From: Escherichia coli
Lineage (GTDB): Bacteria > Pseudomonadota > Gammaproteobacteria > Enterobacterales > Enterobacteriaceae
Assembly (NCBI RefSeq): GCF_024502345.1
Contig: NZ_JALDNN010000001.1
Strand: one strand, 5' to 3'
DNA: 64,000 nucleotides
The notes beneath the pieces were generated by a model. The model was given only the letters and a program-made list of their open reading frames with translations. It had not been told where the DNA came from and did no database searches. How positions within the stretch are numbered: the stretch's first letter is position 1; every line of letters begins with the position of its first letter. Below are positions 39,294 to 51,695 of the stretch, one piece after another. The position numbers were made by a program, and so were the translations under genes.

Positions 39294-46140
<6,847 letters not shown>

Positions 46141-47790
46141 GTGAACTGGCGCAGAATCGTCTGGCTATTGGCGTTGGTTACTCTGCCAACGCTTGCGGAG
46201 GAGACGCCGTTACAACTGGCACTGCGCGGTGCGCAGCACGATCAACTGTATCAGCTGTCGTCATCAGGCGTGACCAAAGCCTCGACATTACCTGACTCGC
46301 TCACCACGCCGTTAGGGAGTTTGTGGAAACTGTATGTTTACGCCTGGCTGGAGGATACCCATCAACCGGAGCAGCCCTACCAGTGTCGCGGAAACTCCCC
46401 GGAAGAGGTTTATTGTTGTCAGGCTGGGGAGAGCATAACGAGCGATACCGCGCTGGTACGTTCCTGTGGGCTCTATTTTGCGCCGCAGCGGTTGCATATT
46501 GGCGCAGATGTGTGGGGGCAATACTGGCAACAGCGTCAGGCACCTGCGTGGTTAGCGTCTCTTACTACGCTGAAGCCAGAAACCTCGGTAACGGTTAAAT
46601 CGCTGCTTGATTCATTAGCGACGTTACCTGCGCAAAACAAAGCTCAGGAAGTCTTACTGGATGTGGTGCTGGACGAGGCGAAAATCGGTGTCGCATCCAT
46701 GCTCGGTAGTCGGGTACGGGTGAAAACCTGGAGCTGGTTTGCCGATGATAAACAGGAAATCCGTCAGGGTGGTTTTGCTGGCTGGTTAACCGATGGTACA
46801 CCGCTGTGGGTTACTGGCAGTGGCACCAGCAAAACGGTACTGACCCGTTATGCGACGGTGCTTAATCGGGTTTTGCCAGTGTCGACGCAAGTTGCCAGTG
46901 GGCAATGTGTAGAGGTGGAGCTGTTTGCCCGCTATCCGCTGAAGAAAATCACAGCGGAAAAGAGTACGACGGCAGTAAAACCCGGCGTACTTAATGGGCG
47001 CTATCATGTGACGTTTACTAATGGTAACCACATTACGTTTGTCAGCCACGGTGAGACGACCTTACTGAGCGAAAAGGGCAAACTGAAATTGCAGTCGCAT
47101 CTCGATCGTGAAGAGTACGTTGCCAGAGTTCTGGATCGCGAGGCGAAAAGTACGCCCCCTGAGGCAGCGAAAGCCATGACCGTGGCGATTCGCACTTTTT
47201 TACAGCAAAACGCCAATCGGGAAGGCGATTGCCTGACCATCCCCGACAGCAGCGCCACGCAGCGTGTTTCTGCTTCGCCAGCGACCACGGGGGCGCGAAC
47301 GATGACCGCCTGGACGCAGGATCTCATCTATGCAGGCGATCCGGTTCATTATCATGGCAGTCGCGCTACCGAAGGGACACTTTCCTGGCGGCATGCCATG
47401 GCCCAGGCGGGGCAGGGAGAGCGTTACGACCAGATACTCGTGTTTGCTTATCCCGACAACAGCCTTAGCCGCTGGGGAGCGCCACGCTCAACCTGTCAGT
47501 TATTACCCAAAGCGAAAGCCTGGCTGGCGAAAAAAATGCCGCAGTGGCGGCGTATATTACAAGGCGAGACGGGGTACAACGAACCAGACGTGTTTGCGGT
47601 CTGTCGTTTAGTCTCAGGTTTCCCCTATACCGATCGGCAGCAGAAACGGCTGTTTATTCGTAACTTCTTTACGCTTCAGGATCGGCTGGATTTAACCCAT
47701 GAGTATCTGCACCTGGCCTTTGATGGTTATCCCACCGGGCTTGATGAGAACTATATCGAAACGCTGACCCGACAATTATTAATGGACTAA
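46141..47790 (+). CDS. yfaQ: YfaQ, DUF2300-like secreted protein (549 aa, GTG start)
   Basis: Starts immediately after the yfaS stop; signal peptide MNWRRIVWLLALVTLPTLAEE. Confidence 0.85.
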   Translation: MNWRRIVWLLALVTLPTLAEETPLQLALRGAQHDQLYQLSSSGVTKASTLPDSLTTPLGSLWKLYVYAWLEDTHQPEQPYQCRGNSPEEVYCCQAGESITSDTALVRSCGLYFAPQRLHIGADVWGQYWQQRQAPAWLASLTTLKPETSVTVKSLLDSLATLPAQNKAQEVLLDVVLDEAKIGVASMLGSRVRVKTWSWFADDKQEIRQGGFAGWLTDGTPLWVTGSGTSKTVLTRYATVLNRVLPVSTQVASGQCVEVELFARYPLKKITAEKSTTAVKPGVLNGRYHVTFTNGNHITFVSHGETTLLSEKGKLKLQSHLDREEYVARVLDREAKSTPPEAAKAMTVAIRTFLQQNANREGDCLTIPDSSATQRVSASPATTGARTMTAWTQDLIYAGDPVHYHGSRATEGTLSWRHAMAQAGQGERYDQILVFAYPDNSLSRWGAPRSTCQLLPKAKAWLAKKMPQWRRILQGETGYNEPDVFAVCRLVSGFPYTDRQQKRLFIRNFFTLQDRLDLTHEYLHLAFDGYPTGLDENYIETLTRQLLMD

Positions 47791-47794
47791 TGCT

Positions 47795-48571
47795 ATGCGA
47801 AAGATTTTTCTTCCGTTGTTACTGGTGGCGCTTTCGCCTGTCGCTCACAGTGAAGGTGTGCAGGAAGTCGAGATTGACGCACCGCTCTCAGGCTGGCATC
47901 CGGCAGAGGGCGAAGATGCCAGTTTTTCACAATCGATCAATTACCCGGCGTCGTCCGTCAATATGGCAGATGATCAAAATATCTCAGCGCAGATCCACGG
48001 CAAAATAAAGAATTATGCTGCGGCGGGTAAAGTTCAGCAGGGCCGGCTGGTGGTCAACGGTGCCAGTATGCCGCAGAGAATTGAATCCGATGGTTCATTT
48101 GCACGCCCTTATATTTTCACTGAAGGCAGCAACAGCGTGCAGGTCATCAGCCCAGATGGGCAAAGCCGACAAAAAATGCAGTTTTACTCAACGCTGGGCG
48201 CTGGAGTGATTCGCGCACGTTTACGGCTGGTTCTCTCGTGGGATACGGACAATACCGACCTCGATCTTCACGTTGTCACGCCCGATGGCGAACACGCCTG
48301 GTACGGTAACACCGTGCTGAAAAACAGTGGTGCACTGGATATGGATGTCACGACGGGGTATGGACCCGAGATTTTCGCCATGCCAGCGCCAGTTCACGGG
48401 CGCTATCAGGTGTATATCAACTACTACGGCGGGCGCAGCGAAACGGAATTAACCACCGCCCAACTGACGCTGATCACCGATGAAGGATCGGTCAATGAGA
48501 AACAGGAAACATTTATTGTACCGATGCGTAATGCTGGCGAGCTGACGCTGGTGAAAAGTTTTGACTGGTGA
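47795..48571 (+). CDS. yfaP: YfaP, DUF2135-like secreted protein (258 aa)
   Basis: ATG 47795, 4 nt after the yfaQ stop; signal peptide MRKIFLPLLLVALSPVAHSEG. Confidence 0.85.
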   Translation: MRKIFLPLLLVALSPVAHSEGVQEVEIDAPLSGWHPAEGEDASFSQSINYPASSVNMADDQNISAQIHGKIKNYAAAGKVQQGRLVVNGASMPQRIESDGSFARPYIFTEGSNSVQVISPDGQSRQKMQFYSTLGAGVIRARLRLVLSWDTDNTDLDLHVVTPDGEHAWYGNTVLKNSGALDMDVTTGYGPEIFAMPAPVHGRYQVYINYYGGRSETELTTAQLTLITDEGSVNEKQETFIVPMRNAGELTLVKSFDW

Positions 48572-48845
48572 TCCATCCCTTCACACAACCTGGCTCTTTC
48601 TTTTTTCAGATAAGACTGCTGGGCGATCTGCCGACGCCAGGATATAACCATTAACAAGCGTCGGCAGATTGGTCATTTCTTATTTTTCGTACTGAGAACT
48701 GTCCATTTACTCCGGCTTTCCTGGTTAAGGCAATGGTTTCTAAGCGATACGCATTATTGCAATGGTGACAGAACATTGCGGTAACACGCTTTTACCGCTA
48801 CCTTAACCACACTCCATCGGTCACCTGAGGCGGAGCTTCGCCCCT

Positions 48846-51695
48846 TTGAAATACCTTGCTTCTTTTCGTACAACCCTGAAAGCCTCGCGCTACATGTTCA
48901 GAGCATTGGCGTTAGTGCTCTGGCTGTTGATTGCTTTTTCATCCGTTTTTTACATCGTTAATGCGTTACATCAGCGAGAATCGGAAATTCGTCAGGAATT
49001 TAATCTGAGTTCCGATCAGGCTCAGCGCTTTATTCAACGCACCTCTGATGTGATGAAAGAGCTGAAGTACATCGCCGAAAATCGCTTATCGGCAGAAAAC
49101 GGTGTGCTTTCCCCGCGTGGACGAGAAACGCAGGCGGATGTGCCTGCGTTTGAACCGCTGTTTGCCGACTCCGATTGTTCAGCAATGAGTAACACCTGGC
49201 GAGGTTCTCTGGAGTCATTGGCGTGGTTTATGCGCTACTGGCGCGATAATTTTTCTGCGGCTTACGATCTCAATCGGGTATTTTTAATCGGCAGCGATAA
49301 CCTCTGCATGGCCAATTTCGGTCTGCGTGATATGCCAGTGGAACGCGATACCGCGTTGAAAGCGTTGCATGAACGCATCAATAAATATCGAAATGCACCA
49401 CAAGATGATAGCGGCAGTAACCTCTACTGGATCAGCGAAGGTCCGCGCCCTGGCGTCGGGTATTTTTACGCGTTGACGCCAGTTTATCTGGCGAACCGGT
49501 TGCAGGCGCTTTTGGGTGTCGAGCAGACCATCCGGATGGAGAATTTTTTCTTACCTGGTACGTTGCCGATGGGGGTTACCATTCTTGATGAAAATGGTCA
49601 TACCCTGATTTCGCTTACCGGACCAGAAAGCAAAATTAAGGGCGATCCTCGCTGGATGCAGGAACGCTCCTGGTTTGGCTATACGGAAGGGTTCCGGGAG
49701 CTGGTGCTGAAGAAAAATCTGCCACCCTCATCGCTAAGCATCGTTTATTCGGTGCCGGTTGATAAGGTGCTGGAACGCATTCGCATGTTGATCCTTAACG
49801 CAATTTTGCTGAATGTGCTTGCCGGAGCTGCATTGTTTACTCTCGCGCGGATGTACGAGCGGCGTATTTTCATTCCGGCGGAAAGCGACGCCCTGCGACT
49901 GGAAGAACATGAGCAGTTCAATCGCAAGATTGTCGCCTCCGCGCCAGTGGGTATCTGCATTTTGCGTACCGCTGATGGCGTCAATATTTTAAGTAACGAA
50001 CTGGCGCATACCTATCTCAATATGCTTACGCATGAGGACCGCCAACGACTGACGCAAATTATCTGTGGGCAGCAGGTCAATTTTGTTGATGTCCTGACCA
50101 GCAACAATACCAATCTGCAAATCAGCTTCGTCCATTCGCGCTATCGTAATGAAAACGTGGCCATTTGTGTGCTGGTGGATGTTTCTTCGCGCGTGAAGAT
50201 GGAAGAGTCGTTGCAGGAGATGGCACAAGCAGCGGAACAGGCGAGCCAGTCAAAATCGATGTTCCTTGCCACCGTCAGTCATGAGCTGCGAACGCCGCTG
50301 TATGGCATTATCGGTAACCTGGATCTGTTGCAAACCAAAGAGTTACCGAAAGGCGTCGATCGTCTGGTGACGGCAATGAACAACTCTTCCAGCCTGTTGT
50401 TGAAAATTATCAGCGATATTCTCGATTTCTCGAAGATTGAATCAGAACAGTTGAAGATCGAACCGCGTGAGTTTTCACCGCGTGAAGTGATGAACCACAT
50501 CACCGCCAACTATTTACCGCTGGTGGTACGCAAGCAGTTAGGCTTGTACTGCTTTATTGAACCGGATGTGCCAGTGGCTTTAAATGGCGACCCGATGCGT
50601 TTACAGCAGGTCATCTCCAACCTGTTGAGTAACGCCATAAAATTCACCGATACCGGCTGTATAGTTTTGCATGTTCGCGCTGATGGCGATTATCTCTCTA
50701 TCCGTGTTCGCGATACCGGCGTGGGGATACCGGCGAAAGAAGTGGTGCGCTTGTTTGATCCCTTCTTCCAGGTCGGAACGGGCGTACAGCGAAACTTCCA
50801 GGGGACCGGTCTGGGTCTGGCGATTTGTGAAAAACTGATCAGCATGATGGACGGCGACATCTCGGTAGATTCAGAACCGGGAATGGGCAGCCAGTTTACC
50901 GTGCGTATTCCGTTGTACGGCGCTCAGTACCCGCAGAAAAAAGGCGTGGAAGGGTTGAGTGGTAAACGCTGCTGGCTGGCGGTCCGCAATGCGTCGCTCT
51001 GTCAGTTCCTGGAAACCAGTTTGCAGCGCAGCGGCATCGTCGTAACAACATACGAAGGGCAGGAACCGACTCCCGAAGATGTGTTAATTACTGACGAGGT
51101 AGTGAGTAAAAAATGGCAGGGTAGAGCGGTAGTGACCTTCTGTCGTCGCCATATTGGTATTCCGCTGGAGAAAGCGCCAGGGGAGTGGGTACACAGTGTG
51201 GCTGCTCCGCATGAGCTACCGGCATTGTTGGCGCGTATTTATTTGATCGAGATGGAGAGCGACGATCCTGCTAACGCTCTGCCGTCGACGGACAAAGCGG
51301 TCAGCGATAATGACGATATGATGATTCTGGTCGTGGATGATCATCCGATTAACCGACGTCTGCTGGCAGATCAGTTGGGATCGTTGGGCTATCAATGTAA
51401 AACCGCGAATGATGGCGTCGATGCGCTTAATGTACTTAGCAAGAATCATATTGATATCGTGCTTAGCGACGTCAACATGCCAAATATGGATGGTTACCGC
51501 TTGACGCAACGCATTCGTCAGTTGGGACTGACGTTGCCGGTAATCGGAGTAACTGCTAATGCGTTGGCTGAAGAGAAGCAGCGGTGTCTGGAGTCCGGTA
51601 TGGACAGCTGCCTGTCGAAGCCGGTAACGCTGGATGTGATAAAACAGACGCTGACGGTATATGCCGAGAGGGTCAGGAAATCGCGGGAATCGTAG
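48846..51695 (+). CDS. rcsC: hybrid sensor histidine kinase RcsC (949 aa, TTG start)
   Basis: HisKA H-box SHELRTPLYGI, HATPase domain and C-terminal receiver (LVVDDHPINRRL...DVNMPNMDG). Confidence 0.96.
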   Translation: MKYLASFRTTLKASRYMFRALALVLWLLIAFSSVFYIVNALHQRESEIRQEFNLSSDQAQRFIQRTSDVMKELKYIAENRLSAENGVLSPRGRETQADVPAFEPLFADSDCSAMSNTWRGSLESLAWFMRYWRDNFSAAYDLNRVFLIGSDNLCMANFGLRDMPVERDTALKALHERINKYRNAPQDDSGSNLYWISEGPRPGVGYFYALTPVYLANRLQALLGVEQTIRMENFFLPGTLPMGVTILDENGHTLISLTGPESKIKGDPRWMQERSWFGYTEGFRELVLKKNLPPSSLSIVYSVPVDKVLERIRMLILNAILLNVLAGAALFTLARMYERRIFIPAESDALRLEEHEQFNRKIVASAPVGICILRTADGVNILSNELAHTYLNMLTHEDRQRLTQIICGQQVNFVDVLTSNNTNLQISFVHSRYRNENVAICVLVDVSSRVKMEESLQEMAQAAEQASQSKSMFLATVSHELRTPLYGIIGNLDLLQTKELPKGVDRLVTAMNNSSSLLLKIISDILDFSKIESEQLKIEPREFSPREVMNHITANYLPLVVRKQLGLYCFIEPDVPVALNGDPMRLQQVISNLLSNAIKFTDTGCIVLHVRADGDYLSIRVRDTGVGIPAKEVVRLFDPFFQVGTGVQRNFQGTGLGLAICEKLISMMDGDISVDSEPGMGSQFTVRIPLYGAQYPQKKGVEGLSGKRCWLAVRNASLCQFLETSLQRSGIVVTTYEGQEPTPEDVLITDEVVSKKWQGRAVVTFCRRHIGIPLEKAPGEWVHSVAAPHELPALLARIYLIEMESDDPANALPSTDKAVSDNDDMMILVVDDHPINRRLLADQLGSLGYQCKTANDGVDALNVLSKNHIDIVLSDVNMPNMDGYRLTQRIRQLGLTLPVIGVTANALAEEKQRCLESGMDSCLSKPVTLDVIKQTLTVYAERVRKSRES

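Follow-up and report, generated by a model that had tools for sequence, protein, structure and literature searches.

The yfaP-rcsC spacer of Escherichia coli as a probable old deletion scar of the ato operon holding a decayed atoS fragment

The genes rcsC and yfaP of Escherichia coli K-12 MG1655 are separated by the ato genes, in the order rcsC(-), atoS, atoC, atoD, atoA, atoE, atoB, yfaP(-). In the window analyzed in this study, a stretch of 64,000 nt from an E. coli contig (NZ_JALDNN010000001.1), the same two genes are only 274 bp apart and an inverted repeat is found between them. The question raised by this locus is whether the spacer is a site that was never occupied by ato or the scar of an ato deletion, and what the inverted repeat represents in either case.

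The yfaP-rcsC spacer and its K-12 counterpart

According to the ORF list, yfaP is located at 47795-48571 on the plus strand (258 aa, stop codon at 48569-48571) and rcsC at 48846-51695 on the same strand (949 aa, TTG start). The boundaries of rcsC are identical in the RefSeq annotation of the nearest genome. The two proteins share 98% (YfaP) and 99.8% (RcsC) amino acid identity with their K-12 counterparts. The yfaP gene is the final gene of a co-oriented yfaS-yfaQ-yfaP run, in which yfaQ occupies 46141-47790, and rcsC is followed by rcsB and rcsD on the minus strand. The yfaS gene at 41521-46140 is an intact ORF of 1539 aa belonging to the alpha-2-macroglobulin family, whereas yfaS of K-12 MG1655 carries a pseudogene annotation (b4500). 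With yfaP ending at 48571 and rcsC starting at 48846, the spacer covers 48572-48845 and the interval of 274 bp given in the initial annotation is borne out.

No intact gene is present in the spacer. The only ORFs of at least 40 aa touching it are of 41 aa and 77 aa, both on the minus strand and both without Pfam match above threshold, and RefSeq leaves the spacer without annotated feature in nearly all genomes. The ato genes are absent from the entire 64-kb window, where a tblastn search with the K-12 Ato proteins returned only weak paralogous matches inside rcsC. The interval had initially been described as free of coding sequence; this is right as to intact genes, but overlooked that the inverted repeat sits in a pseudogene fragment of atoS.

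The MG1655 annotation places ato between rcsC and yfaP, as the initial annotation had stated, and the two genes are not adjacent there. The distance from the yfaP stop to the rcsC start is 7,490 bp in MG1655, a net difference of 7,216 bp to the window. An alignment of the interval to the K-12 flanks and a search for direct repeats at the breakpoints had been proposed together with that statement, and both were carried out. On the yfaP side, the K-12 homology ends at 48572, one base past the stop codon (blastn, 48300-48572 to L001 15639-15367, the K-12 locus, 98.2%), while on the rcsC side high identity starts at 48767 and continues onward at 99.7%. These two flanks enclose 194 scar-specific nt. 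The boundary at 48767 is the onset of constraint and not a deletion breakpoint: all of the spacer except its first ~25 nt aligns with the K-12 rcsC-atoS intergenic region and about the first 150 nt of atoS. The aligned part displays ~79% identity to K-12, has lost the start codon, and carries internal deletions of 52 nt and 11 nt.

The atoS remnant is located at 48597-48677 on the minus strand and corresponds to about nt 67-147 of K-12 atoS (codons ~23-49). Blastn matches 48597-48661 to nt 82-147 of K-12 atoS (66 nt, 78.8% identity, E = 1e-6) in collinear position and, as expected, on the minus strand. Global and multiple alignments (MAFFT) carry the homology over the former atoS start into the rcsC-atoS intergenic region, and the homology of the remnant is reproduced against Citrobacter atoS alleles. 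The minus-strand translation of the remnant reads PTLVNGYILASADRPAVLSEKRK, to be compared with PTLTIGYIVETEGRSAVLSEK(E)KK in K-12, and there are stop codons on both sides of this frame. The 5' tip of atoS (nt 1-14) was placed by the MAFFT alignment at 48678-48691 on the minus strand, separated from the piece at 48597-48677 by the 52-nt internal deletion (atoS nt ~15-66). Its start codon is destroyed by a change of CAT to CGT at 48688-48690 on the plus strand (ATG to ACG). The former rcsC-atoS intergenic region on the atoS promoter side follows in the same alignment at 48692-48766, decayed and with the 11-nt deletion, and atoS beyond about nt 150 is wholly missing from the scar. Identity of the remnant to the E1V33-type, SCPM-type and Citrobacter atoS alleles is much the same throughout (77-80%); one divergent allele as its donor was rejected on this account, and no lineage can be named.

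The ~25 nt at 48572-48596 constitute the zone of the distal breakpoint, and their source is not identifiable. No match of at least 12 nt to this zone was found in K-12 or in the 82 locus records L001-L082, except in another scar. The search for direct repeats and microhomology at the breakpoints found none, the junction being too old and decayed to recover any.

The upstream region and leader of rcsC at 48767-48845 (plus strand) is nearly identical to K-12, with 76 of 79 nt aligning at 100% and with columns conserved as far as Citrobacter. These ~80 nt before the TTG start probably serve as promoter and leader of rcsC. No call was made by the consensus promoter scan in this near-invariant stretch. 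A small hairpin, GGCGGAGCTTCGCC, is situated within it, immediately before the TTG start. Another conserved block, GGTTAAGGCAATGGTTTCTAAGCGA (GGTTAAGGCAATGGTTTCT...), lies at 48715-48748 inside the former rcsC-atoS intergenic region. Scar genomes, ato+ E. coli and Citrobacter alike have kept it, and it shares 94% identity with Escherichia whittamii against 72-74% in the neighbouring blocks. Because the block survives without atoS, it is read as serving rcsC, and is probably a regulatory site on the rcsC side.

Deletion scar, empty site and single origin

Based upon this anatomy, the 274-bp spacer is very probably an old ato deletion scar which holds a decayed piece of atoS. One old deletion of ~7.2 kb would have taken atoC and atoDAEB entirely, the greater part of atoS, and also the 73 bp between atoB and yfaP that hold a bidirectional terminator. 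What would have been left, counted from the rcsC side, is the leader at 48767-48845, the atoS promoter region at 48692-48766, the atoS fragment at 48597-48691 and the ~25-nt junction.

An empty site would require ato to be a horizontally acquired island that was inserted in the K-12 lineage and never reached this strain. The variable presence of ato among E. coli genomes fits such a history, as does the LAA pathogenicity island, a mobile element that provides some STEC strains with a second atoSC-atoDAEB copy (PMC5539235, PMC10562709). It is refuted, however, by the atoS-derived sequence in the spacer, which has the right place and orientation. A survey with the RcsC N-terminus as query, limited to a single genome for each species, did not recover E. 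albertii, E. fergusonii, E. marmotae and E. ruysiae; in the loci that it yielded, a tblastn search with K-12 proteins placed rcsC divergent from atoS-atoC-atoD-atoA-atoE-atoB in ~20 Citrobacter species as well as further Escherichia lineages. The synteny shared with Citrobacter implies that ato is ancestral at the locus and argues against an island of the K-12 lineage. Composition and borders of the K-12 ato region also speak against an island: the GC content of 0.48-0.54 is like that of the flanks, and the annotation of the region contains no integrase or mobility genes, no tRNA and no flanking direct repeats. The atoS remnant, the Citrobacter synteny, the ordinary GC content and the lack of mobility genes together exclude the empty site, which retains hardly any probability, and support the deletion scar, which nothing in the data contradicts. 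An assembly or sampling artefact of the window can be dismissed, as 1,537 complete RefSeq genomes have the identical junction, the closest of them matching at 99.8% over 1,274 bp.

The initial annotation had left the choice between empty site and deletion scar undecided; the collinear decayed 5' end of atoS upholds the latter and removes the former. Its label of an accessory island is misleading for genes that are ancestral, of ordinary base composition, and bordered in K-12 by neither mobility genes nor tRNA. It was correct that ato is variably present, since ato is absent in the window and present at the K-12 site, and ato DNA was detected in 3,932 of the 5,426 complete E. coli genomes.

The contiguous yfaP-rcsC junction was found in 1,537 of these 5,426 genomes (~28%), including strains of O157:H7, O55:H7, O104:H4, O157:H16 and O125ac:H10. 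Genomes with ato include K-12, BL21(DE3), UTI89 and an O121 strain. The counts of scars and of genomes with ato DNA together exceed 5,426 by 43, so at least 43 genomes carry the scar plus ato DNA elsewhere, which is probably the copy on the LAA island. The spacer is matched in 3,718 ato+ E. coli genomes only through atoS, at ~78% (78.3%). Over the 194 scar-specific nt, each of the 1,537 E. coli scars reaches at least 95% identity, with no intermediates down to the atoS match of ~78%.

A scar was also found in E. whittamii (L005), with the same yfaP-side junction, the 52-nt and 11-nt deletions, the destroyed start codon and the hairpin-forming substitutions. The secondary features common to the E. 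whittamii and E. coli scars indicate that the scar arose once. The flanking genes of E. whittamii and the window differ with dS of 0.38 (yfaQ), 0.41 (yfaP) and 0.76 (rcsC). Judged from these comparisons, the scar either predates the split of E. coli and E. whittamii or crossed between the two lineages long ago, and the scar haplotype, once arisen, has persisted beside the ato+ haplotype. Escherichia sp. E1V33 (L006), a close relative of E. whittamii with 96.5% identical rcsC, possesses an intact ato, and both clades, E. coli and E. whittamii/E1V33, appear polymorphic for ato. Since Escherichia atoS alleles differ from one another by up to 25-28%, the 21% distance of the remnant to K-12 atoS is no clock. 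The atoS of E1V33 itself is 75% identical to K-12 in nucleotides and 82% in amino acids, as distant as the Citrobacter alleles, and the nucleotide identity to K-12 climbs along the cluster from atoC (78%) to atoD (84%) and atoA (89%).

The same junction might also have been produced many times by a deletion hotspot, and ato was indeed lost independently at least two further times. Escherichia sp. MOD1-EC7003 (L003:9246-10000) has atoS nt 1-302 (97% to K-12) fused to a 3' remnant of atoB (~150 nt, 79% identity), with a REP-like element beside yfaP. In E. coli PCP06171 (L085:3001-4655), a recent IS1A-mediated deletion extends from atoS nt 417 into yfaQ, and the rest of ato and yfaP are gone. These losses have other breakpoints, which argues against a hotspot, as does the identity of at least 95% among the scars, and the secondary features shared with E. 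whittamii are implausible to recur. A repeated origin is thus very improbable, and we keep to the single origin of the scar.

Exchange between lineages is suggested in another locus record, L074 (CP089930.1, labelled E. coli E69), where rcsC and rcsB display 88% and 91% nucleotide identity to K-12 and atoS, atoC, atoD and atoE display 96-98%. In this mosaic locus, the ato block or rcs may have been exchanged.

Structure, origin and possible function of the inverted repeat

The inverted repeat initially reported at about 48626-48670 is real. It consists of the perfect 12-bp arms ATCTGCCGACGC at 48626-48637 and GCGTCGGCAGAT at 48658-48669, complementary in 12 of 12 positions and separated by a 20-nt loop. 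A perfect inverted repeat of at least 12 appeared in one of 2000 first-order Markov random 274-mers, which puts it beyond chance. The 129-nt RNA around the repeat folds better than all 200 shuffles (z = -3.8), and the RNA hairpin comprises 13 consecutive pairs and three outer pairs past a one-base bulge, with ~-26 kcal/mol for a 71-nt segment. A U-rich run, UCAUUUCUUAUUUUUCG, starts ~7 nt after the stem on the plus strand, in the sense of yfaP. The 66-nt segment with the repeat is confined to scar genomes and is single-copy in them (median 1, maximum 2 where an IS has split it); a dispersed repeat of the REP/BIME or ERIC type was rejected on this single copy. No Rfam match at E <=1 was found on either strand of 48300-49100. 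The repeat is wholly inside the atoS remnant and is not a signature of recombination or of a mobile element.

The ancestral state of the repeat can be read from functional atoS alleles, of which 22 were compared (E. coli, other Escherichia and Citrobacter). The region of the left arm is near-invariant in them (CCTTCnGTTTCTAC), the right arm is close to that of the scar, and the ancestral arms are complementary at 7 of 12 positions. Differences between the scar and the functional atoS consensus amount to 7/12 in the left arm, 2/12 in the right arm, 5/20 in the loop and 4/28 in the flanks, so that the left arm stands out with 7/12 against 11/60 elsewhere (Fisher p = 0.0075). This cluster of substitutions indicates that the repeat was made after atoS died, when the left arm was turned into the complement of the right arm. 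Quasi-palindrome template switching is a known mutational mechanism in E. coli. A template switch on the existing 7-of-12 quasi-palindrome has about an even chance of being the event that made the repeat. The scar resembles the products of this mechanism in its substitution cluster confined to one arm and in the passage from an imperfect to a perfect repeat. It differs from established cases in that it is read from sequence comparison alone, and stepwise selection for a hairpin would lead to the same end state.

The position of the hairpin draws attention to the terminator that was lost. The K-12 atoB-yfaP spacer (L001:15295-15367, 73 bp) folds as AAAACACCCGATA-loop-TATCGGGTGTTTTT, with a 14-bp stem and with A and U runs at the sides, and is by prediction a textbook bidirectional intrinsic terminator. 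With the deletion, this terminator is gone and rcsC is now 274 bp downstream of yfaP and co-directional with it. The scar hairpin resembles Rho-independent terminators such as that of K-12 atoB/yfaP in being a GC-rich hairpin after the last gene of an operon, with a U-rich stretch, in the place of the deleted terminator. It differs from them by a loop of 20 nt instead of 3-8 nt and a U-tract displaced 7 nt past the stem, and with these dimensions it was not called by the consensus terminator scan. The same scan also missed the K-12 atoB-yfaP terminator, which was seen by folding, and its negatives need care. Consensus scans for promoters and terminators made no call among the scar-specific positions of the spacer; the sole terminator-like call, at 48778-48798 on the minus strand, is outside the inverted repeat.

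Conservation relative to E. whittamii is distributed unevenly along the spacer. The identity is 50% at 48572-48595, 94% at 48596-48680 (remnant and hairpin), 74% at 48681-48714, 94% in the block at 48715-48748, 72% at 48749-48766 and 96% in the rcsC leader at 48767-48845, and the third codon positions of yfaP and rcsC are 68-78% identical. No other part of the scar diverges as fast as the junction zone at 48572-48596, where 8 of 25 positions differ. Differences to E. whittamii number 4 in the 65 positions of the atoS remnant and 2 in the 44 of the hairpin, compared with 25 in the 130 of the remaining scar-specific sequence. Under the third-position rate of 21.7%, the binomial probability is 6e-4 for the remnant and 2e-3 for the hairpin, and the remnant is distinguished from the rest of the scar with Fisher p = 0.018. 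The partitions into remnant and hairpin were set independently of the E. whittamii comparison; the case is nevertheless one deep comparison, and the remnant was recognised partly through its little change, which is an ascertainment bias. These values suggest that the hairpin region is under constraint, and the same is suggested for the block at 48715-48748.

Selection may have kept the hairpin region since the deletion, for instance as a non-canonical 3'-end element or stand-in for the lost terminator that would shield rcsC from yfa read-through, though we consider this a tentative reading with rather less than an even chance. The repeat could equally be neutral debris, a mutational by-product without function whose low divergence reflects noise or the local mutation rate, and we place the chance of this at about one half. 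Several observations fit debris: as a terminator the hairpin is non-canonical and has no Rfam family, the two arm changes of E. whittamii lack compensation, as does a left-arm G-to-C change at 48636 in E. coli Z1323HEC0422, and an IS3-family element in the loop (~48648) splits the repeat in E. coli SRY206 (L086:1093-2700). Nor is the U-tract conserved, E. whittamii and strain TA8571 having a weaker one. The dependence on one deep comparison points the same way, further divergent scar alleles not having been found. Among candidates for stem covariation, the RcsC-based species scan yielded only E. whittamii, a search for YfaP homologues with five contig look-ups yielded only E. coli (ato+ or scar) or unrelated genera, and a metagenome scan with a scar-specific 24-mer yielded two E. 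coli-like contigs. Neutral debris does not easily explain, on the other hand, that remnant and hairpin show a divergence three to five times below that of the flanking third codon positions, and also below that of the scar segments interleaved with them. Nor would recombination easily make a mosaic as fine as 24/85/34/34/18 nt. The most far-reaching reading, that ato+ and scar form a long-lived trans-species polymorphism in which the dead atoS fragment was exapted and the template-switch hairpin kept by selection as a 3'-end or insulator element between the yfa operon and rcsC, the gene of an envelope-stress kinase, is unlikely. That the atoS remnant was exapted in the form of a hairpin is a possible, minor lead.

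Relation to known systems and meaning for the locus

The prevalence of the ato operon was reported to differ by >50% between phylogroups A and B1 (PMC9602453), AtoS/AtoC is given as "not present" in three of four tabulated Shigella species (PMC9496106), and the second atoSC-atoDAEB copy is assigned to module I of the LAA pathogenicity island (PMC5539235, PMC10562709). The variable content of ato genes is therefore already known and the finding is ordinary at the gene-content level. No description of the scar anatomy or of transcripts from the junction was found in the open-access literature.

In being present in some E. coli and absent in others, ato is similar to the K-12-specific segments ("K-islands") and other pangenome polymorphisms. 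The locus departs from the K-island picture in that the site is resolved as a deletion from an ancestral ato+ state, shared with E. whittamii, and not as an insertion in K-12. The scar also resembles the remnants of reductive evolution in enterobacteria, with its truncated 5' fragment, dead start codon, indels and raised divergence at the place of the intact gene. It differs from usual remnants in being unusually old for an intraspecific polymorphism, as the scar is shared by a sister species, and in that part of the atoS remnant has changed less than synonymous sites in the flanks.

Loss of ato means loss of the AtoSC two-component system and of acetoacetate and short-chain fatty-acid catabolism, unless a second copy is present elsewhere. 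Scar strains, including O157:H7 and O104:H4, have no AtoSC and no acetoacetate/butyrate genes at the native locus, and the ato regulation described for K-12 is not transferable to them. With rcsC following directly after the yfa operon in the same direction, and with the native terminator gone, Rcs expression could be wired slightly differently in these strains. In evolutionary terms, the gene-content polymorphism at this locus is one of loss and not of gain; the loss happened more than once independently, and the scar is of such an age that a sister species has it too.
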